Of a stretch of 64,000 nucleotides of DNA, positions 30,486-41,123 are shown in pieces. Both the position numbers and the translations under genes were made by a program. This DNA is from Escherichia coli (GTDB taxonomy: Bacteria; Pseudomonadota; Gammaproteobacteria; Enterobacterales; Enterobacteriaceae), in assembly GCF_013315695.1 (NCBI RefSeq), contig NZ_CP054353.1. One strand, 5' to 3'. The notes under the pieces are model-generated. The model had not been told where the DNA came from. It did not search any database and saw only the letters and a program-made list of their open reading frames with translations. The first letter of the stretch is position 1, and each line of letters begins with the position of its first letter.

Positions 30486-31307
30486 GTGTTCCCCGCGCCA
30501 GCGGGGATAAACCAAATACAGGACCAATATTTTGATATATATAATCGTGTTCCCCGCGCCAGCGGGGATAAACCGGTGATTCTGGCAATACTGGCACTTC
30601 CGTTTTGGTGTTCCCCGCGCCAGCGGGGATAAACCGGGCGGTTAACTGGTCCTGTGCGGATATGCGCTGTGTTCCCCGCGCCAGCGGGGATAAACCGATG
30701 TGGAAAGGCGAGCTGAGGGTGGCCTACGCGTGTTCCCCGCGCCAGCGGGGATAAACCGGCTGAGGAAATTGCTAAACCCTCGCAGGATCCGTGTTCCCCG
30801 CGCCAGCGGGGATAAACCGTTGCCGGTACAGCTCCAGCATTAATCCCCACCGTGTTCCCCGCGCCAGCGGGGATAAACCGTTGCGACGTGGTGCGCGCTC
30901 GAGCACAACGTTGTGTTCCCCGCGCCAGCGGGGATAAACCGATGTAAACCCCTCGCGCATCGAGTCAAATGTCGTGTTCCCCGCGCCAGCGGGGATAAAC
31001 CGCCACCTCAGCCTGCGCGCCCGCTGAATATTCCGTGTTCCCCGCTCCAGCGGGGATAAACCGGGACGCGTTCCATCAGGGCGGGTCCAGGGAATGTGTT
31101 CCCCGCGCCAGCGGGGATAAACCGCAGGCGGCGCAGTGGCGCATGAATCCGTTCGCGTGTTCCCCGCGCCAGCGGGGATAAACCGGAGTTTGTGAATTTA
31201 ACAGAATTCCGCGCCCGGTGTTCCCCGCGCCAGCGGGGATAAACCAGCCAATTGCCATATATGCCATCGCCAGCAGCCGTGTTCCCCGCGCCAGCGGGGA
31301 TAAACCA
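30486..31307 (+). CRISPR. Type I-E CRISPR array, 14 repeats / 13 spacers (distal array between queE and ygcE)
   Basis: 29-bp repeat GTGTTCCCCGCGCCAGCGGGGATAAACCG at exact 61-bp period from 30486 to 31279; 32-bp unique spacers; repeat 10 has GCTCC variant; repeats 1, 13, 14 end in A. Confidence 0.97.
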
Positions 31308-31944: not shown

Positions 31945-33423
31945 TTACGCATTCGACCAGCTCTGGATCGAATCCGCATTCCCCAATTCCCCATGCATCA
32001 CTTCATACGATTTTTTCAGTATCACATCAGTGTGTTTGGTTAGGTCTTTGAAAATGCCTTTATTCATCGCGTCGTAGCGTTTGGCGTTGCTCTCAACAGG
32101 CATAAAGATATCTTTCACGCGAACCATTTTGTCGACAGCCGTTGCGTAATCCGGATACAGACCAAGCCCTACCGCCGTATTAATCGCCGCCCCCAGACTT
32201 GCACAACCATTAATGGCGTTACGGCGTGCCGGAAGGTTGAACACGTCGGCAAAAATCTGCATAAACAGATCGCTGTTCGAACCGCCGCCAGTAATGATCA
32301 CATGCTTTGCAAAGTGATTCATTTCATTACACATATTGTCGTAATTGTTCTTCAGCGTCAGCGCCACGCTTTCCAGTATCGAACGATATATCCATGCGTA
32401 ATCCATGCTGGAATCAAAGCCGATCATAATCCCGCGTTTGTATGGTTCCCACGGATTGGTCAGCCAGTCCAGCACCGTCATCAGACCATTACAGCCAGGT
32501 GGCACACAAGACGCTTTTTTGTTGAGCAAATCTTCCGGTGAAAGATCCTGTGCTTTGGCATCCTGAATTAACGACTCGCCTAGCATGTCGCGTAGCCAGC
32601 TCACCGTCCACATGCCTTTGCGAATACCGTAACCTTCATACAGCAAGGTTTGCGGAATAGAAGACATAATCGGCCAGTACGCTACCGGATCTTTCGGCAG
32701 TGCTTTACCGTTCATCATCAGCGCGATGTAGGTGCCAAGAGAAATCACCGCCGTTTCATCATCCAGTAATCCGGCTCCCAGAGCTTCTACCGGTTTATCA
32801 CTGGTGGTACAAACAACCGGCAGCCCAGCTGGGAAATGTGTCGCCAGCGCGGCTTGAGGAGTGATATGCCCAAGAACAGTGCCCGGCATTTGCACATCAA
32901 ACAGCATATGACGGGGGATATTAAACTTCTCCATGACTGCGGCATCTTCACTCCATGCCCAGCTCTTATAATCCACCGGCCACTGACCAAAATAGTTGGC
33001 GATATTGTCTTTAAACTCGCCGGTTAAGCGATGCGTCAGATAACCCGAAAAAGAGGTGACATATGCCACGTCAGGATTCGTATGTTCGTAAGGGCGTGTA
33101 ACGCGTGCATCCTGCCAGCTAATCAACGGCGCAGCTGGCGTGCCATCGGCTTTCAATAACGCACGGCAGCAACGGATGGATCCCAGACCAATACCGACAA
33201 TATCTTCTTTATTTCCGGCAAACTGACTCATCAAATCGTGACCGGCAAAACATAATGATGCCCATAAATCGTCGTCAGGATGTTCTGCGGTATCGGCATC
33301 TGGCGTGTGCATCGGCTGCAATAAGCCTTTGCCTTCGCAAACCACATTACCTTCCAGATCATACATCACCACTTTTGTGCTCTGACTTCCGCCATCAATC
33401 CCTATGATGTATTTTTTCGACAT
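31945..33423 (-). CDS. ygcE: FGGY-family carbohydrate kinase
   Basis: 492-aa ORF with FGGY kinase N- and C-terminal motifs (IGIDGGSQSTK...). Confidence 0.9.
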   Translation of the reverse strand: MSKKYIIGIDGGSQSTKVVMYDLEGNVVCEGKGLLQPMHTPDADTAEHPDDDLWASLCFAGHDLMSQFAGNKEDIVGIGLGSIRCCRALLKADGTPAAPLISWQDARVTRPYEHTNPDVAYVTSFSGYLTHRLTGEFKDNIANYFGQWPVDYKSWAWSEDAAVMEKFNIPRHMLFDVQMPGTVLGHITPQAALATHFPAGLPVVCTTSDKPVEALGAGLLDDETAVISLGTYIALMMNGKALPKDPVAYWPIMSSIPQTLLYEGYGIRKGMWTVSWLRDMLGESLIQDAKAQDLSPEDLLNKKASCVPPGCNGLMTVLDWLTNPWEPYKRGIMIGFDSSMDYAWIYRSILESVALTLKNNYDNMCNEMNHFAKHVIITGGGSNSDLFMQIFADVFNLPARRNAINGCASLGAAINTAVGLGLYPDYATAVDKMVRVKDIFMPVESNAKRYDAMNKGIFKDLTKHTDVILKKSYEVMHGELGNADSIQSWSNA

Positions 33424-33449
33424 GATTTTTCTCCTGTAATTTTCTGGAC

Positions 33450-34727
33450 TTACTTGCTGCTAGCCATAGCAGGGGCGCTATCAGCAGTACGAATTTTTTG
33501 GAACAGCAAAAAGGTAAAGACGATCACCATGGCAAGCGCCGCCATGCCCATCAGCCACATATTGCGGTAGGCTTCTGCAGCGGGCAGGGTGTCTTGCCAG
33601 TAGCCGATAATCGGGTAAACGAAGACATCCGGCAGGAATCCAATCACCGAACAAATACCTACCGTGGTGCCCATAATGTAAGACGGTGTTCTCGCTTCGC
33701 CAGGGCAGGCCCAGTACAGCCCGCGTGAGGCGTAACAGGTGAATCCCAGCAGTAAAATCAGGCCAATCCCCATCGCGACCGATTGCGGGTTAGAGTTCGT
33801 GACGAGCAGGGCAGTTAACGCCAGCAAGCCGAGTACGGAAAGGATTTGGATCACGCGGGTAGGGGATTTCACTTTACTGTAGGTGGTGATAATGCCGCCA
33901 AGTGGACCACACAGCGCGCGGAATATTTTGTTGATCACAATCCCCATGTAGCTCGCCGCCACCAGCGACATGCCGTACATTTCGGTGAGATAGTTGGTGG
34001 AGTAACTCAGAATGGCGTAGATGGTGAAGACACCAAAAATCACCATGCTGCAATACCAGGTGGTGCTGATGCGCAAAACGGCCAGGATGTCGCTAAGCTG
34101 GAATGACTGTTTTTCTTCGTTATTGGTATTGCGCAGGTTGTTGTTATCGCTAACAAAAAACCAGCACAGAATCCCCAATAAAATGTAGACCACACTGTAG
34201 ATGATAATGACCGTTTTCAGGCTGGCGCTGTCATCCGGTGCAAAGCGAGAAAAGACCCACATGGTAAACACCGCCAGCGACATTACACCGACGCCGCGCA
34301 GCCCTTCCATCCAGCCCATAATTTTCCCTTGCTCGCTATGATCGCCCAGCAACGATGCGGCTTTAATCGACACCGACCACAGCATTAAAATCGTCGTTAT
34401 CGCAAAGGCGACCTGAATACAGAGCATTACCCACAGCGGTGGATAAGTTGCCATTAACAGACCCAGTAATCCGGTAATGATCATCGCGGAAGTAATCATT
34501 TTGCGATGTGAGAATTTATCGGCAATAACGCCACTGGGCGCATAAAGAATAATAGCTGCAATACCAAAGGTACTCATTATTAAACCTATCTCGGTATTGC
34601 TGAATCCCATAAATTTTGCTATGGGAATTTGATAAATATAACGTAAATAAGCCAGGTCGAAACTAACGCCGCCGCTAAAACTAATTATCGCGAGGGTTAT
34701 CCAACGGCGATATGAGTTGTGTTGCAT
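33450..34727 (-). CDS. yqcE: MFS transporter
   Basis: 425-aa polytopic membrane ORF; co-directional and adjacent to ygcE. Confidence 0.85.
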   Translation of the reverse strand: MQHNSYRRWITLAIISFSGGVSFDLAYLRYIYQIPIAKFMGFSNTEIGLIMSTFGIAAIILYAPSGVIADKFSHRKMITSAMIITGLLGLLMATYPPLWVMLCIQVAFAITTILMLWSVSIKAASLLGDHSEQGKIMGWMEGLRGVGVMSLAVFTMWVFSRFAPDDSASLKTVIIIYSVVYILLGILCWFFVSDNNNLRNTNNEEKQSFQLSDILAVLRISTTWYCSMVIFGVFTIYAILSYSTNYLTEMYGMSLVAASYMGIVINKIFRALCGPLGGIITTYSKVKSPTRVIQILSVLGLLALTALLVTNSNPQSVAMGIGLILLLGFTCYASRGLYWACPGEARTPSYIMGTTVGICSVIGFLPDVFVYPIIGYWQDTLPAAEAYRNMWLMGMAALAMVIVFTFLLFQKIRTADSAPAMASSK

Positions 34728-34750
34728 ATCGTATTCCCATTTGTAATAGA

Positions 34751-34797
34751 CAAAAAAAAGAGAAAAGTAAGCCGCCCTTTCAGGTGGATTACTTTTC
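34751..34797 (-). promoter_or_regulatory. Leader hairpin + U-tract 25 nt upstream of yqcE start (candidate attenuator)
   Basis: Minus-sense gaaaagtaa-N18-ttacttttc followed by cttttttttg. Confidence 0.35.
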
Positions 34798-34905
34798 TCA
34801 GGTCTCTAGTAATTGCAATAAGAAATAACATGGAAAGCAGTGGTGTTGTGTGAGAGTAGTCACGCTTCTGCTTTTTAAAATTATTTGATAATACGAATAT
34901 CACAC

Positions 34906-34921
34906 TGTGATTACGATCACA
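34906..34921. promoter_or_regulatory. CRP-type binding site in divergent yqcE/ygcW promoter region
   Basis: TGTGAttacgaTCACA, perfect match to CRP half-sites TGTGA-N6-TCACA. Confidence 0.6.
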
Positions 34922-34973
34922 TTAGCGCTTATGCCCTTATGCTAAAAATTATATCCAGTTACCAGAGATAATG

Positions 34974-35022
34974 AGAAAGGTAACTTCCCTCTCGCGGGGG
35001 AAGTTACCTTTCTTTTTTTTTT
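34974..35022 (+). terminator. Leader hairpin + T-tract 25 nt upstream of ygcW start (candidate intrinsic terminator/attenuator)
   Basis: Perfect 15-bp inverted repeat agaaaggtaacttcc-N10-ggaagttacctttct followed by T10. Confidence 0.5.
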
Positions 35023-35046
35023 GCCTTACGGAAATTGGAGCTAACT

Positions 35047-35832
35047 ATGTCAATCGAATCTCTCAATGCGTTCTCAATGGATTTTTTCTCCCTGAAAGGT
35101 AAAACAGCAATTGTTACCGGCGGGAATAGCGGTTTAGGCCAGGCATTTGCCATGGCGTTGGCCAAAGCTGGCGCAAATGTCTTTATCCCTAGCTTCGTCA
35201 AAGATAACGGCGAAACAAAGGAAATGATTGAAAAACAGGGTGTCGAAGTTGATTTTATGCAGGTGGATATCACCGCAGAAGGCGCGCCGCAGAAGATTAT
35301 CGCTGCCTGCTGTGAGCGCTTCGGTACCGTAGATATTCTGGTTAACAATGCCGGTATTTGTAAGCTGAATAAGGTGCTGGACTTCGGTCGTGCCGACTGG
35401 GACCCGATGATTGATGTGAACCTGACCGCCGCATTCGAGTTAAGCTACGAAGCGGCAAAAATTATGATCCCGCAGAAAAGCGGTAAAATTATTAATATCT
35501 GTTCATTGTTCTCTTACTTAGGTGGACAATGGTCACCTGCATATTCTGCAACTAAACATGCTCTTGCCGGATTCACCAAAGCTTATTGTGATGAACTAGG
35601 TCAATATAATATTCAGGTAAATGGTATTGCCCCTGGATATTACGCTACCGATATCACCCTGGCGACACGCAGTAATCCAGAAACCAATCAGCGCGTTCTT
35701 GATCATATTCCAGCAAACCGTTGGGGCGATACTCAGGATTTAATGGGCACAGCCATATTTCTCGCAAGTCCGGCATCGAATTATGTCAACGGACATTTAT
35801 TAGTGGTTGATGGCGGTTATTTAGTGCGCTAA
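35047..35832 (+). CDS. ygcW: Short-chain dehydrogenase/reductase (KduD/2-deoxygluconate dehydrogenase-like)
   Basis: 261 aa; Rossmann TGGNSGLG motif; catalytic YSATK. Confidence 0.9.
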   Translation: MSIESLNAFSMDFFSLKGKTAIVTGGNSGLGQAFAMALAKAGANVFIPSFVKDNGETKEMIEKQGVEVDFMQVDITAEGAPQKIIAACCERFGTVDILVNNAGICKLNKVLDFGRADWDPMIDVNLTAAFELSYEAAKIMIPQKSGKIINICSLFSYLGGQWSPAYSATKHALAGFTKAYCDELGQYNIQVNGIAPGYYATDITLATRSNPETNQRVLDHIPANRWGDTQDLMGTAIFLASPASNYVNGHLLVVDGGYLVR

Positions 35833-35901
35833 TCCATAACGGTGGTTTCTGTTTTCTCTTATTAATGATTATTCCATTTTTATTATCAGGAAGGAATTAC
35901 T

Positions 35902-37356
35902 ATGTCTTTATCTCGCGCAGCGATTGTCGACCAGCTAAAGGAAATTGTTGGTGCAGATCGCGTAATTACCGATGAAACAGTATTAAAGAAAAACAGTATT
36001 GACCGTTTTCGCAAATTTCCGGATATTCATGGCATTTATACTTTGCCTATTCCGGCAGCGGTCGTAAAACTCGGTTCCACAGAGCAAGTGTCCCGTGTGC
36101 TGAATTTTATGAATGCGCACAAAATTAACGGTGTGCCGCGTACCGGTGCTTCCGCTACCGAAGGTGGACTGGAAACCGTTGTGGAAAACTCGGTAGTGCT
36201 TGATGGCTCTGCAATGAATCAAATCATTAATATTGATATAGAGAATATGCAGGCGACGGCGCAATGTGGTGTTCCGCTGGAGGTGCTGGAAAACGCGTTG
36301 CGTGAAAAAGGTTACACCACGGGGCATTCACCGCAATCAAAACCGCTGGCGCAGATGGGCGGCCTGGTAGCAACCCGCAGTATCGGGCAGTTCTCCACAC
36401 TCTACGGCGCAATCGAAGATATGGTCGTTGGTCTGGAAGCAGTATTGGCTGATGGCACCGTAACACGTATTAAAAACGTGCCACGCCGCGCGGCTGGCCC
36501 GGACATTCGTCACATTATCATCGGCAACGAAGGTGCATTGTGCTATATCACTGAAGTAACAGTGAAAATCTTTAAGTTCACCCCGGAAAACAACCTCTTC
36601 TACGGCTATATCCTGGAAGATATGAAAACCGGCTTCAACATCCTGCGTGAAATCATGGTGGAAGGGTATCGTCCGTCGATTGCTCGTTTGTATGATGCTG
36701 AAGATGGCACCCAACACTTCACCCATTTTGCCGACGGCAAATGCGTGCTGATCTTTATGGCTGAAGGTAACCTTCGCATTGCGAAGGCGACGGGCGAAGG
36801 GATTGCTGAAATCGTGGCACGTTACCCGCAATGCCAGAGCGTGGACAGCAAGCTGATCGAAACCTGGTTTAACAACCTGAACTGGGGACCGGATAAAGTG
36901 GCTGCCGAACGTGTGCAGATCCTCAAAACCGGCAACATGGGCTTTACCACCGAAGTGTCCGGCTGCTGGAGCTGCATTCACGAAATCTACGAAAGCGTTA
37001 TTAACCGTATTCGTACCGAGTTCCCGCACGCCGACGACATCACCATGCTGGGCGGTCACTCCTCTCATAGCTATCAGAACGGCACCAACATGTACTTCGT
37101 CTACGACTACAACGTCGTTGACTGTAAGCCGGAAGAGGAAATCGACAAGTACCACAATCCGCTCAACAAAATCATCTGCGAAGAAACCATTCGCCTCGGC
37201 GGTTCGATGGTGCACCACCACGGTATTGGTAAACATCGCGTTCACTGGAGCAAACTGGAACACGGCAGCGCGTGGACGTTGCTGGAAGGGCTGAAAAAAC
37301 AGTTCGATCCTAACGGCATTATGAATACGGGTACTATCTATCCGATTGAAAAATAA
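35902..37356 (+). CDS. ygcU: FAD-linked oxidase (alkyl-DHAP synthase/D-lactate dehydrogenase-like)
   Basis: 484-aa ORF with FAD-binding PCMH-type domain features. Confidence 0.9.
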   Translation: MSLSRAAIVDQLKEIVGADRVITDETVLKKNSIDRFRKFPDIHGIYTLPIPAAVVKLGSTEQVSRVLNFMNAHKINGVPRTGASATEGGLETVVENSVVLDGSAMNQIINIDIENMQATAQCGVPLEVLENALREKGYTTGHSPQSKPLAQMGGLVATRSIGQFSTLYGAIEDMVVGLEAVLADGTVTRIKNVPRRAAGPDIRHIIIGNEGALCYITEVTVKIFKFTPENNLFYGYILEDMKTGFNILREIMVEGYRPSIARLYDAEDGTQHFTHFADGKCVLIFMAEGNLRIAKATGEGIAEIVARYPQCQSVDSKLIETWFNNLNWGPDKVAAERVQILKTGNMGFTTEVSGCWSCIHEIYESVINRIRTEFPHADDITMLGGHSSHSYQNGTNMYFVYDYNVVDCKPEEEIDKYHNPLNKIICEETIRLGGSMVHHHGIGKHRVHWSKLEHGSAWTLLEGLKKQFDPNGIMNTGTIYPIEK

Positions 37357-37449
37357 TGTGTGAGGCAGCGTTCCGCGATGACGGGGCGTTGCCTTTTCGG
37401 CTTCTCAGGCGAGAAGCCGTTCTTATTACCGGACAATGAAGGGGTAAAG

Positions 37450-38787
37450 ATGAACACTTCACCGGTGCGAATGGATGATTTACCGCTTAACCGTTTTCAC
37501 TGTCGAATTGCTGCGCTCACTTTCGGCGCGCACCTGACCGACGGTTATGTTCTCGGCGTCATTGGTTACGCCATTATTCAGCTTACGCCCGCCATGCAAC
37601 TGACGCCGTTAATGGCGGGAATGATCGGCGGCTCGGCGCTCCTTGGTTTGTTTCTTGGCAGCCTGGTTCTTGGGTGGATCTCCGACCATATTGGTCGGCA
37701 AAAAATCTTCACCTTCAGCTTTTTGCTGATTACGCTCGCTTCGCTCTTGCAATTTTTTGCCACCACGCCAGAGCATCTTATTGGATTGCGCATTTTGATC
37801 GGCATTGGTCTGGGAGGCGATTACTCAGTCGGTCACACCTTGCTGGCTGAATTTTCCCCGCGCCGCCATCGCGGTATTTTGCTGGGCGCATTCAGTGTGG
37901 TGTGGACCGTAGGCTATGTGCTGGCAAGTATTGCCGGACATCACTTTATTACCGAAAGCCCGGAGGCCTGGCGCTGGCTGCTGGCATCAGCGGCGTTACC
38001 AGCCTTGCTGATTACGCTGCTACGTTGGGGCACGCCGGAATCGCCACGCTGGCTACTGCGCCAGGGGCGTTTTGCAGAAGCTCACGCTATCGTTCATCGC
38101 TATTTTGGCCCGCATGTTTTACTGGGCGATGAAGTGGCAACGGCGACCCATAAACACATCAAAACCTTGTTCTCTTCGCGCTACTGGCGGCGCACAGCGT
38201 TTAACAGCGTCTTCTTTGTCTGCCTCGTAATCCCATGGTTTGTGATTTATACCTGGCTGCCAACTATCGCCCAGACTATTGGACTGGAAGATGCGCTGAC
38301 TGCCAGCCTGATGCTTAATGCGTTGTTAATTGTTGGCGCGCTGCTGGGATTAGTTCTGACGCACCTGCTGGCACATCGCAAGTTTTTGCTGGGAAGTTTT
38401 TTGTTGCTGGCGGCAACGCTGGTAGTGATGGCCTGTTTGCCTTCCGGCAGTTCATTAACGCTGCTGCTTTTTGTTCTCTTCAGCACCACCATTTCGGCAG
38501 TCAGTAATCTGGTGGGCATTTTGCCTGCGGAAAGTTTTCCTACTGACATTCGCTCGCTGGGCGTCGGTTTTGCCACCGCCATGAGTCGGTTGGGGGCGGC
38601 GGTAAGTACTGGCCTGCTGCCGTGGGTGCTGGCGCAGTGGGGAATGCAAGCCACCTTATTGCTCCTGGCGGCAGTGTTGTTGGTTGGTTTTGTTGTGACC
38701 TGGCTATGGGCACCAGAAACCAAAGCACTCCCGCTGGTGGCGGCGGGAAATGTAGGAGGTGCGAATGAACATTCTGTTAGCGTTTAA
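37450..38787 (+). CDS. ygcS: MFS transporter
   Basis: ORF-track call trimmed to MNTSPVRMDD (445 aa); 12-TM MFS. Confidence 0.85.
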   Translation: MNTSPVRMDDLPLNRFHCRIAALTFGAHLTDGYVLGVIGYAIIQLTPAMQLTPLMAGMIGGSALLGLFLGSLVLGWISDHIGRQKIFTFSFLLITLASLLQFFATTPEHLIGLRILIGIGLGGDYSVGHTLLAEFSPRRHRGILLGAFSVVWTVGYVLASIAGHHFITESPEAWRWLLASAALPALLITLLRWGTPESPRWLLRQGRFAEAHAIVHRYFGPHVLLGDEVATATHKHIKTLFSSRYWRRTAFNSVFFVCLVIPWFVIYTWLPTIAQTIGLEDALTASLMLNALLIVGALLGLVLTHLLAHRKFLLGSFLLLAATLVVMACLPSGSSLTLLLFVLFSTTISAVSNLVGILPAESFPTDIRSLGVGFATAMSRLGAAVSTGLLPWVLAQWGMQATLLLLAAVLLVGFVVTWLWAPETKALPLVAAGNVGGANEHSVSV

Positions 38788-39544
38788 AGCCGAACCGGAT
38801 GCCGGAATGCTGGCGGAAAAAGAGTGGCAGGCGGCGGCTCAGGGTAATATTGGACCAGATGTTTCGCTACTGCGAAGTTTACTCGGTGCTGATGAACAGG
38901 CTGCCGCCGCGCTGCTGTTGGCGCAGAGAAAAAACGGTACGTCGATGTCTTTAACCGCGTTGAGCATGGGGGATGAACGGGCGTTGCACTGGCTGCGCTA
39001 TCTCATGGCTCTTGGGTTTGAGGACGCTGTATTGCTGGAGACGGTGGCAGATCTGCGCTTTGCGCCGGAATTTGTCGCTCGCCATATTGCCGAATGGCAG
39101 CGTCAGAATCCGCTGGATCTGATAATTACCGGCTGCCAAAGCAGCGAAGGGCAGAATGGGCAAACGCCATTTTTGCTGGCGGAAATGCTGGGCTGGCCCT
39201 GCTTCACCCTGGTGGAGCGTTTTACTCTCGACGCGCCGTTTATCACCCTTGAACAGCGTACTGAACATGGGCTGCGCTGTTACCGGGTTCGCTTGCCTGC
39301 GGTGATTGCCGTGCGCCAGTGTGGTGAAGTGGCCTTGCCAGTACCGGGAATGCGCCAGCGAATGGCTGCGGGGAAAGCAGAAATTATCCGTAAAACTGTT
39401 GCTGTCGAATTGCCAGCGATGCAGTGTCTGCAACTGGCAAGAGCAGAGCAACGACGCGGAGCGACGCTGATTGATGGGCAAACGGTAGCAGAAAAAGCGC
39501 AAAAGCTATGGCAGAACTATTTACGCCAAAGGATGCAGCCATGA
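38765..39544 (+). CDS. ygcR: Electron transfer flavoprotein beta-subunit-like protein
   Basis: 259 aa from MNILLAFKAEPD; FixA/EtfB-like; overlaps ygcS end. Confidence 0.85.
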   Translation: MNILLAFKAEPDAGMLAEKEWQAAAQGNIGPDVSLLRSLLGADEQAAAALLLAQRKNGTSMSLTALSMGDERALHWLRYLMALGFEDAVLLETVADLRFAPEFVARHIAEWQRQNPLDLIITGCQSSEGQNGQTPFLLAEMLGWPCFTLVERFTLDAPFITLEQRTEHGLRCYRVRLPAVIAVRQCGEVALPVPGMRQRMAAGKAEIIRKTVAVELPAMQCLQLARAEQRRGATLIDGQTVAEKAQKLWQNYLRQRMQP

Positions 39545-40401
39545 ATATCGCAATTGTGACAATAAATCAGGAGAATGCCGCAATAGCGAGCTGGCTGGCA
39601 GAACAGGATTTCAGCGGTTGTACCCTGGCACACTGGCAGATTGAACCTCAGCCCGTAGTGGCGGAACAGGTGCTGGATGCGCTGGTGGAACAGTGGCAGC
39701 GAACGCCAGCGGACGTTGTTCTCTTTCCGCCGGGAACGTTTGGTGATGAACTGTCGACACGGCTGGCCTGGCGTTTACATGGTGCAAGCATCTGCCAGGT
39801 GACTTCGTTAGATATTTCAACCGTAAGCGTGCGCAAATCCCACTGGGGAAATGCGCTAACGGCGACGCTGCAAACAGAAAAACGCCCGCTATGCCTTTCC
39901 CTTGCCCGCCAGGCGGGAGCAGTGAAAAACGCCACATTGCCCTCTGGTATGCAGCAACTGAACATTGTCCCCGGCGCACTTCCCGACTGGCTGGTTAGCA
40001 CAGAGGATCTGAAAAATGTTACCCGTGACCCATTAGCTGAGGCCAGACGGGTGCTGGTGGTGGGGCAGGGCGGAGAGGCAGATAACCAGGAAATCGCTAT
40101 GCTGGCAGAAAAGCTGGGAGCCGAAGTGGGCTACAGTCGGGCGCGAGTAATGAACGGTGGCGTTGATGCCGAAAAAGTGATTGGTATTTCCGGACATCTG
40201 CTGGCACCTGAGGTGTGTATTGTTGTTGGCGCTTCTGGCGCAGCAGCGTTAATGGCGGGCGTATGCAATAGCAAGTTTGTGGTGGCGATTAATCATGACG
40301 CCAGCGCAGCGGTATTTTCACAGGCAGATGTTGGCGTGGTTGATGACTGGAAAGTGGTGCTGGAGGCAATGGTGACAAACATTCACGCAGATTGCCAATA
40401 A
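39541..40401 (+). CDS. ygcQ: Electron transfer flavoprotein alpha-subunit-like protein
   Basis: 286 aa from MNIAIVTINQ; FixB/EtfA-like; ATGA overlap with ygcR stop. Confidence 0.85.
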   Translation: MNIAIVTINQENAAIASWLAEQDFSGCTLAHWQIEPQPVVAEQVLDALVEQWQRTPADVVLFPPGTFGDELSTRLAWRLHGASICQVTSLDISTVSVRKSHWGNALTATLQTEKRPLCLSLARQAGAVKNATLPSGMQQLNIVPGALPDWLVSTEDLKNVTRDPLAEARRVLVVGQGGEADNQEIAMLAEKLGAEVGYSRARVMNGGVDAEKVIGISGHLLAPEVCIVVGASGAAALMAGVCNSKFVVAINHDASAAVFSQADVGVVDDWKVVLEAMVTNIHADCQ

Positions 40402-40547
40402 CGTGTTGCTGGATGATCCTGCCTACGGTTCTGGCCTGGGGACTTGTAGGCCTGATAAGACGCGTCAAGCGTCGCATCAGGCGCTGAATGTCCGATGTGG
40501 CGTACAGCCTACAAATCACACAAATTCAATTCGTTACGATTATCCCG
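40402..40547. repeat. REP element(s) between convergent ygcQ and ygcP
   Basis: gtaggcctgataagacgcgtcaagcgtcgcatcaggc REP consensus-like palindrome. Confidence 0.5.
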
Positions 40548-41123
40548 TCAAAGCAATTTTTTCGCTAGCGTCCAGACCCCGGTATTCGTGGTGGAAAGCG
40601 CCACGACACCTGCGTTAATCGCATTACGCGCATCTTCTTCATCGCACACCAGCCCGCCAGCAATCAGCGGTTGGCGGATTTTCTCCGTCACCCAGCCCAG
40701 CACTTTGGGCATACAGCCAGGCAGGATCTCAATACAATCCGGATTCGATTGCGCAACTTGCTTATCAATGTTGTGAAACGAAATCGAATCAACAATAAAC
40801 AGGCGATGAATACAGAAAAAACCTTCCGCTCTTGCTGCTTTCAGCATTGAGGCTTTGGTACTGATAATGCCGTCCGCCTCGGTCACCAGTTTCAGAAACT
40901 GAATCACCACTTCTTTGTTCGATGCGCCTTCCAGCAAATCGACATGAATAAAGGCATATTTCCCGGCACTTTTAATCTTTTTGACGATATGACTGATGGT
41001 GCAGATATTGCCGTACAACACGGAAATAAACTGGCATTCAGAGTCGATTGCCAGTTGCAGGCTGGCATTATCTTTAACGGCAGCAATCACCGGATTCTGG
41101 CGGAGCAGGTGTAAGAGGGGCAT
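40548..41123 (-). CDS. ygcP: GlpP-family (glycerol-3-phosphate-responsive antiterminator-like) protein
   Basis: 191-aa ORF matching remembered YgcP / GlpP family. Confidence 0.85.
   Translation of the reverse strand: MPLLHLLRQNPVIAAVKDNASLQLAIDSECQFISVLYGNICTISHIVKKIKSAGKYAFIHVDLLEGASNKEVVIQFLKLVTEADGIISTKASMLKAARAEGFFCIHRLFIVDSISFHNIDKQVAQSNPDCIEILPGCMPKVLGWVTEKIRQPLIAGGLVCDEEDARNAINAGVVALSTTNTGVWTLAKKLL

Follow-up and report, generated by a model that had tools for sequence, protein, structure and literature searches.

Organization of the ygc locus and its two leaders

The window analyzed in this study, a stretch of 64,000 nucleotides from the Escherichia coli contig NZ_CP054353.1 (assembly GCF_013315695.1), contains the ygc cluster in the order ygcE and yqcE (minus strand), ygcW-ygcU-ygcS-ygcR-ygcQ (plus strand), and ygcP-ygcO-ygcN (minus strand). 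The divergent genes ygcW and yqcE are separated by a 320-bp spacer, which was present with 95-100% identity in 5,065 of 5,426 complete genomes. We found that this spacer encodes two copies of the same leader RNA, a switch of ~75 nt, one for each direction, in which a short 5' helix competes with an intrinsic terminator, and that the ygcP product, a member of the GlpP antiterminator family, is likely to act on both. The leader-controlled operon ygcW-ygcU-ygcS-ygcR-ygcQ (35047..40401, plus strand) encodes a short-chain dehydrogenase/reductase (SDR), an FAD-linked oxidase, a major facilitator superfamily (MFS) transporter, and the beta and alpha subunits of an electron transfer flavoprotein (ETF). 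The second leader-controlled operon, yqcE-ygcE (31945..34727, minus strand), encodes an MFS transporter and an FGGY-family kinase. The gene ygcP (40548..41123, minus strand) is intact and encodes a GlpP-family protein of 191 aa, the candidate trans-acting antiterminator.

A complete switch was identified upstream of ygcW (34949..35022, plus strand), consisting of a short 5' flank, an antiterminator strand, two GAG boxes, a terminator hairpin, and a U-run, and scoring 86 bits (E ~1e-13) with R1, a covariance model built on 78 leaders. The intrinsic terminator (34973..35022, plus strand) has a 19-bp stem with a 4-nt loop (34973-35014) and U10 (35013-35022), and it contains a perfect 15-bp inverted repeat formed by agaaaggtaacttcc (34974-34988) and ggaagttacctttct (34999-35013). 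The antiterminator 5' strand AGUUACC (34957..34963, plus strand) pairs with GGUAACU (34979-34985), and the nascent 36-nt ygcW RNA adopts this helix at -6.7 kcal/mol. The antiterminator loop (34964..34978, plus strand) carries box 1, AGAGA (34964-34968), the spacer UAAU, and box 2, GAGAAA (34973-34978), which doubles as the base of the terminator 5' arm.

The second copy of this RNA, also a complete switch, precedes yqcE (34752..34822, minus strand; 77 bits with R1, E ~6e-12). Its intrinsic terminator (34752..34799, minus strand) has a stem (34799-34760) with two internal mismatches, followed by U8 (34759-34752, or A8 on the plus strand), and the hairpin arms on the minus-strand leader are GAAAAGUAA (34762-34770) and UUACUUUUC (34789-34797), with 18 nt between them. 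The antiterminator 5' strand AUUACU (34808..34813, minus strand) pairs with AGUAAU (34793-34788); compared with the ygcW antiterminator, a G-C to A-U change is compensated on both strands, and the U at 34788 is mismatched (U-C) within the yqcE terminator stem. The boxes (34794..34807, minus strand) comprise box 1, AGAGA (34807-34803), the spacer CCU, and box 2, GAGAAA (34799-34794), and the nascent yqcE 5' hairpin was calculated at -1.4 kcal/mol.

A preliminary description of this DNA had reported inverted repeats with T-tracts in both leaders and a GAAA(G/A)GTAA core common to the two stems, and these readings were exact. The T10 following the perfect 15-bp repeat ends (at 35022) 25 nt before the ygcW ATG at 35047, and the U8 following gaaaagtaa-N18-ttacttttc ends 25 nt before the yqcE ATG at 34727. 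The core is an enriched 9-mer: GAAARGTAA occurs seven times in the window against 0.78 expected, a count that none of 100 shuffles reached, and four of the seven copies are arms of the two leader hairpins. Beyond this core, an upstream (G/A)UUACY-AGAGA segment was found to be common to both leaders. RNA folding, which had been suggested as a check, gave minimum free energies of -35.1 kcal/mol (z = -6.4) for the 88-nt ygcW leader and -23.3 kcal/mol (z = -3.0) for the 88-nt yqcE leader, and none of 200 shuffles folded as well in either case.

Conservation of the leader element

To place the leaders in a wider context, 80 loci were gathered via a YgcP/GlpP homologue, with one genome per species, and the ygc genes were then mapped. 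Hits of the covariance model were counted on the sense strand at E < 1e-4, and GAGAAAGG variants of the leader motif were included in the counts. In about 50 loci, ygcP occurred together with ygcW, ygcU, and ygcE orthologues. These ygc-type loci span Enterobacterales (~20 genera), Vibrio, an Anaerolineaceae metagenome-assembled genome (MAG; Chloroflexota), Clostridia, Tissierellia, Sporomusa (Negativicutes), and halophilic Bacilli, and the sequence before ygcW is strikingly conserved among them, with the consensus (A)GUUACY-AGAGA-N3-4-GAGAAA-RGUAAC-UUCC...loop...GGAAG..YUUUCUC-U8.

The covariance model returned 92 sense-strand hits, which are distributed over 49 loci of five phyla-level groups. 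The leaders have been kept in ygcP-bearing genomes, as the preliminary description had proposed to examine: the element lies directly upstream of 47 of 50 ygcW orthologues (48 if L050, with 39.3 bits, is included) and of all 36 yqcE orthologues. Extra copies precede ygcE and ygcU and, in some Firmicutes, genes for betaine-type transporters. The 64-kb window contains only the two elements described above, apart from their own reverse-strand echoes. Since the covariance model found no copy upstream of ygcN or the ygcNOP operon over the window, there is no evidence for self-regulation of YgcP through the leader element. A search against Rfam 15 at E <= 1 returned nothing at the E. coli leaders and nothing at the glp leaders of Bacillus subtilis.

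Two variations in the placement of the element were observed. In Citrobacter youngae and Klebsiella spallanzanii (L006 and L008), the distance between the yqcE element and the start codon is 149 nt rather than the usual ~24 nt, and the extra ~125 bp between the terminator and the yqcE start suggest an insertion downstream of the terminator. Additionally, in three Firmicute genomes a ygc-type leader stands before genes for BCCT-family (betaine/choline/carnitine-type) transporters or before a gene for a choline/betaine-type ABC permease (L052, 9789-9858, minus strand; L049, 1777-1844, minus strand; L053, 9737-9810, minus strand).

Competing helices and GAG boxes

The terminator stem was 88.5% paired, with compensatory changes at 13 of its 19 pairs, exceeding all 500 shuffles and all slid controls. 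In addition, RGUAAC in the terminator 5' arm is exactly complementary to the upstream GUUACY, and the resulting helix of 6-7 bp had been missed in the preliminary description. In this antiterminator helix, 93.7% of the cells were paired, compared with 14.5-54.4% when the 3' partner was slid by 1-3 columns. The six core pairs form in 82-86 of the 86 distinct sequences, and compensatory changes were found at three positions. The changes include G-C to A-U (61 to 23 sequences, among them an independent change in the Sporomusa ygcW leader), U-A to C-G (63 to 19 sequences), and A-U to G-C in one Enterobacteriaceae MAG (L020; GUUGCC/GGCGAC). Covariation among orthologous leaders, another check that had been put forward, was therefore found in the terminator stem and in the competing helix. 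In the antiterminator, 84 of 86 sequences have the C of GUAAC paired, whereas in the terminator just 32 of 86 do, which indicates that selection acts on the alternative helix.

The GAG triplets of both boxes are invariant in every one of the 85 distinct sequences, the 4-6-nt spacer between the boxes varies, and box 1 is unpaired in both conformations. These results together form the signature of a sequence-specific trans-acting factor. Furthermore, the calculated energies of the 5' hairpins (-6.7 and -1.4 kcal/mol), set against those of the terminators (-35 and -23 kcal/mol), suggest that termination occurs by default and that read-through needs a stabilizing factor.

Leader transcripts and the control region

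Published Term-seq data for K-12 strain MG1655 grown in LB medium to an optical density of 0.4 (Adams et al. 2021, PMC7815308, supplementary file 3) contain a 3' end at each hairpin. The ygcW leader 3' end, 2900311 (-), lies 38 nt upstream of ygcW and has 40,640 reads, a Rho score of 0.50, the entry "No" for Rho region, and a score of 15.8 as an intrinsic terminator (PMC7815308). The yqcE leader 3' end, 2900556 (+), lies 36 nt upstream of yqcE and has 1,557 reads, a Rho score of 0.61, the same entry for Rho region, and a score of 11.4 as an intrinsic terminator; neither end bears a "characterized element" note in the table (PMC7815308). On NC_000913.3, both positions (111 and 356 of the K-12 locus L082) map to the 3' arms of the respective stems, with the ends reading ...GUUACC/UUUCU9 for ygcW and ...CUUACUUUU/CUCU8 for yqcE, where the slash marks the end, 4-5 nt before the U-run. 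Probably, these are terminated leaders that were trimmed by exonuclease back to the GC-rich upper stem. Short terminated leader transcripts, which the preliminary description had suggested seeking by Term-seq, are thus represented by Rho-independent 3' ends at both hairpins.

Putative extended -10 promoters were identified ahead of both leaders. That of ygcW, TGcTAAAAA (34940..34948, plus strand), follows the pattern TGnTAnnnn, which is conserved at the same position in Enterobacterales, and from its placement transcription would start 2-3 nt before AGUUACC. That predicted for yqcE, TGtTATTTC (34822..34830, minus strand), keeps the TGnTA pattern in the alignment. Firmicute loci have clear TTGACA-17-TATACT promoters ~12 nt upstream of GUUAC. 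According to published data, the divergent spacer is bound by RpoD holoenzyme in vitro, and its perfect-consensus CRP site, TGTGATTACGATCACA (34906..34921), has already been published from ChIP-seq and Footprint-seq. This site is located at about -41.5 from the predicted ygcW start and about -99 from the predicted yqcE start, and because of this difference in spacing CRP may affect the two divergent promoters differently. Catabolite control via CRP would be superimposed on the leader switch.

Taken together, each leader appears to be a conditional intrinsic terminator, that is, an attenuator of the protein-dependent antitermination type. The earlier proposal that the hairpins are attenuators is well supported, since a hairpin and U-run on the sense strand lie between the extended -10 element and the ribosome-binding site, are conserved, and coincide with in vivo 3' ends.

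YgcP and the GlpP family

YgcP matched Pfam family PF04309 (GlpP) over the whole model (positions 1-173 of 173; E = 2.8e-62) and PDB entry 3kts (E = 4.6e-28), and it resembles the Listeria and Thermotoga structures designated "glycerol uptake operon antiterminator". With this full-length match and 28% identity to B. subtilis GlpP (E = 9e-35), the homology to GlpP that the preliminary description had given for YgcP was borne out. Across phyla, its gene was found linked with ygcW, ygcE, and ygcU.

For comparison, the supplement of PMC9604022 and a complete genome of the B. subtilis group provided the proven GlpP target sequences. When metagenomes were scanned for the B. subtilis glpD leader, one short contig lacking both glpP and glpF was obtained, and the GlpK of that contig led to the complete genome. 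The glpD leader reads ...GGUC-CU-GAGAU-GAGGAGA-GACC-ACAGC..., in which GAGGAGAGACC... begins the terminator 5' arm, and the glpFK leader reads ...UGUG-AUG-GAGAAUCCG-GAGA-CC-CACA-GC.... Both have tandem GAGA boxes, the second of which lies at the terminator base, and a short complementary segment flanking them, as in the layout of the ygc leaders. The signature "GAGA-N1-7-GAG at terminator base" was observed 14 times against 0.67 expected in 27 Clostridial glp-type loci, whose GlpP homologues are 46-52% identical to YgcP, 80 times against 4 expected in the ygc loci, and twice against 0 in the window. In the Clostridial loci it typically lies right after glpP, and it precedes a gene for a glycerol-3-phosphate (G3P) oxidase or GlpA-like protein in 8 of 10 cases tested.

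The ygc covariance model gives no significant score on the Bacillus leaders; the link to the proven GlpP targets therefore consists of a shared design and protein homology, not of demonstrated RNA homology. A flanking helix universal to GlpP-type leaders was considered and dropped after a shuffle control, and such a helix is retained for the ygc class alone. Likewise, sequence homology of the ygc leaders to GlpP target RNAs is not claimed, because the glpD leader reached just 15.7 bits. According to a review, G3P-bound GlpP binds the antiterminator RNA of glpD, and a comparative-genomics study notes of the GlpP RNA regulon that it "was not studied".

Proposed mechanism of antitermination

We propose, by analogy with GlpP, that YgcP together with a ligand binds the nascent GAG-box hairpin and blocks termination at both leaders, and we regard this as the likely mode of control. 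YgcP as the binding factor, the dependence on a ligand, and the identity of that ligand are the parts of the scheme that we infer. Transcription would start a few nucleotides before (G/A)UUACY, and CRP would gate initiation in the promoter region that the operons share. Because RNA polymerase reaches the 3' strand of the 5' hairpin earlier than the terminator 3' arm, this hairpin is able to form first. By default, and in the absence of YgcP with its ligand, the far more stable terminator would displace this weak helix; the hairpin of 19 bp (ygcW) or 11+5 bp (yqcE) and the U-run would form, and RNA polymerase would release a leader RNA of ~60-70 nt. In the presence of the inducer, YgcP would bind the nascent GUUACY/RGUAAC hairpin, whose loop presents the two GAG boxes. 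Binding would sequester GAGAAA-RGUAAC, the base and middle of the terminator 5' arm, so that the terminator could not form and transcription would read through into ygcWUSRQ and yqcE-ygcE.

By analogy with G3P, GlpK, and GlpP, the inducer is probably the phosphorylated product of the FGGY kinase YgcE. The substrate of the ygc pathway may be a compound resembling compatible solutes, because the same leader precedes BCCT- or choline-type transporter genes in some Firmicutes. E. coli has a paralogous FixABCX ETF set that is linked to carnitine. To our knowledge, the RNA recognition code of the GlpP family has been undefined since the discovery of GlpP in the 1990s. It is conceivable, but rather doubtful at present, that tandem GAG(A) boxes in a hairpin beside a terminator are a code used throughout the PF04309 family, and that the ygc subclass reads a new phosphorylated effector of an uncharacterized, ETF-linked pathway of catabolism.

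Alternative explanations

The perfect or near-perfect inverted repeats with a common core in a divergent control region could also be sites for a dimeric repressor or activator of the two promoters, and a DNA operator had indeed been kept as a fallback in the preliminary description. Several observations disfavor it and leave it very improbable. Relative to the conserved -10 elements, the sites are on the downstream side, a U-run invariably follows them on the sense strand alone, and in vivo RNA 3' ends fall at the sites. Across the stems, 184 G-U pairs were counted on the sense strand against 59 A-C pairs; since an A-C would be a G-U on the opposite strand, this bias indicates pairing in RNA and contradicts an operator. 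In addition, the terminator loop ranges from 3 to ~14 nt and varies in sequence, the palindrome has on its other side no symmetric counterpart to the invariant upstream AGAG box or to the GUUACY strand, and no gene for a DNA-binding regulator is conserved in the cluster. A conserved 5' element that competes with a terminator, with invariant boxes and a covarying helix, is also the architecture of a riboswitch, in which the 5' hairpin itself would bind a pathway metabolite and YgcP would be an enzyme or an unrelated regulator. This has little probability: the sensing part would be a single helix of 6-7 bp with a loop of ~15 nt, much below known aptamers and marginal on its own beside the terminators it would have to overcome, and Rfam 15 gave no family match at E <= 1. 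Moreover, a PF04309 gene accompanies the element in all sampled loci, which were collected via ygcP, and the family member GlpP is reported, in the review mentioned above, to bind the glpD antiterminator RNA with G3P.

The hairpins might instead be constitutive attenuators or generators of small RNAs (sRNAs) without a dedicated antiterminator, for which the abundance of the ygcW leader 3' end in LB (40,640 reads) and the known role of other 5'-UTR fragments as sRNAs or sponges speak (Adams et al., PMC7815308). This explanation is unlikely, as it accounts neither for the covarying competing helix and the invariant unpaired GAG box nor for the presence of the element before every operon of the cluster in many genomes and its linkage to a GlpP homologue. 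A role in trans could coexist with the switch, and the abundant trimmed ygcW leader RNA may have such a role. Antitermination could also depend on a factor other than YgcP, such as an RNA chaperone or another protein that reads GAG boxes, given that binding of YgcP to the leaders is a prediction and that ygcP is not adjacent to them in E. coli. We give this a small chance, because no regulator-like gene other than ygcP has stayed with the element from Proteobacteria to Firmicutes, because in Firmicutes ygcP either is the immediate divergent neighbor of the leader or directly precedes it, and because related GAG-box leaders follow canonical glpP genes.

Several results weigh against antitermination by YgcP as proposed here. 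The 3' ends in K-12 lie inside the 3' arm and not in the U-run, and by themselves they cannot separate termination from processing. In E. coli, ygcP is 5.5 kb from the leaders, in a separate ygcNOP operon without such a leader. Every locus was fetched through ygcP, and the co-occurrence of ygcP and the element follows from this sampling. In an 11-kb B. subtilis glp locus, the ygc covariance model scored the glpD leader at E ~0.1 (15.7 bits), like ordinary terminators, and the flanking helix in glp-type leaders was not above a shuffled control (3.94 versus 3.60 bp on average, a value reached by 118 of 2000 shuffles). Finally, there is one clear exception among the ygc-type loci: in Deltaproteobacteria bacterium Smac51 (L075, 10001-11481), a ygcW orthologue (70% identity) comes after ygcP, and the spacer, which is GC-rich, lacks the element.

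Other features of the window

A CRISPR (clustered regularly interspaced short palindromic repeats) array covers at least positions 30486-31002, between queE and ygcE, and a CRISPR is annotated in the matching strain; its repeat is the E. coli type I-E GTGTTCCCCGCGCCAGCGGGGATAAACCG, with a period of 61. Between the convergent genes ygcQ and ygcP, an element resembling repetitive extragenic palindromic (REP) sequences and bacterial interspersed mosaic elements (BIME) was found at 40449-40522, with a sub-threshold match to the Rfam family naRNA4 (31.9 bits against a gathering score of 59.5), which was the only Rfam hit near the leaders. In one strain whose spacer is identical to that of the window (L001, 11741-12438), ygcU and ygcS are separated by an IS1 and ygcQ is frameshifted, and the ygc cluster is therefore decaying in some E. 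coli lineages. The window has no IS1 between ygcU and ygcS (37356-37360) and no ygcQ frameshift.

Relationship to known systems and biological meaning

The ygc system is most closely comparable to GlpP of B. subtilis, a regulator of ~190 aa from the same PF04309 family that acts in dependence on G3P on the glpD, glpFK, and glpTQ leaders. In both, an intrinsic terminator lies in the 5' UTR soon after the promoter, tandem GAG(A) boxes are present with the second opening the terminator 5' arm and a short complementary segment upstream of box 1, a layer of catabolite control is added (by CcpA in Bacillus and by CRP in E. coli), and the regulated genes include a kinase gene that could make a phosphorylated inducer. 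Of the features of a GlpP-type system, a PF04309 regulator encoded with the regulated genes, a leader terminator with short transcripts in vivo, and a competing leader segment were found at the ygc locus. Unlike the B. subtilis leaders, the ygc element has its own strict sequence, GUUACY...GAGAAARGUAAC, and a longer covarying helix of 6-7 bp; YgcP, at 28% identity, belongs to a proteobacterial host, and its proposed targets are not glp genes but an uncharacterized cluster of SDR, FGGY kinase, FAD oxidase, ETF, and transporter genes. For this reason, the effector is probably not G3P.

The same logic, a protein on a 5' hairpin that overlaps the terminator 5' arm of a catabolic leader, is known from E. 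coli BglG and B. subtilis SacY-LicT with their ribonucleic antiterminator (RAT) hairpins. Those proteins have a CAT-PRD fold and are controlled by phosphorylation through the phosphotransferase system, whereas PF04309 is TIM-barrel-like and control by a small ligand is expected. No gene for a CAT-PRD antiterminator was found in the ygc cluster, and the leader is unrelated to RAT and without an Rfam match. HutP and TRAP read repeated NAG or GAG/UAG triplets, and in the ygc leaders, too, repeated GAG motifs with short variable spacers in single-stranded RNA near a terminator appear to be read, but by a member of another protein family, and there are two boxes, placed in a hairpin loop, instead of 6 (HutP) or 9-11 (TRAP). 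Moreover, TRAP promotes termination, while the role proposed for YgcP is to prevent it.

The searchable literature contained no treatment of ygcP, of the function of the ygc cluster, or of the ygcW/yqcE leaders, in agreement with the earlier impression that such regulation was not known to be described. We therefore consider it likely that the locus represents an undescribed E. coli system that works like B. subtilis GlpP and its glp leaders and controls the uncharacterized, sugar-like catabolic cluster ygc. GlpP and PglpD are already used as an inducible module, and the leader and protein pair described here could likewise become a portable one. Fusions of the leaders to a reporter could serve in screens for the compound that induces the ygc cluster, which is among the larger orphan catabolic clusters of E. 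coli, and the tandem GAG boxes are a candidate recognition motif of the GlpP family that is directly testable in B. subtilis. The element represents a new family of cis-regulatory RNA, with ~90 instances in ~50 species of five phyla-level groups, that is absent from Rfam. YgcP, so far a "putative antiterminator" without a target, gains two precise candidate RNA targets and a testable mechanism and, if this mechanism is true, E. coli would have, in addition to BglG, a second catabolic system of protein-dependent antitermination.

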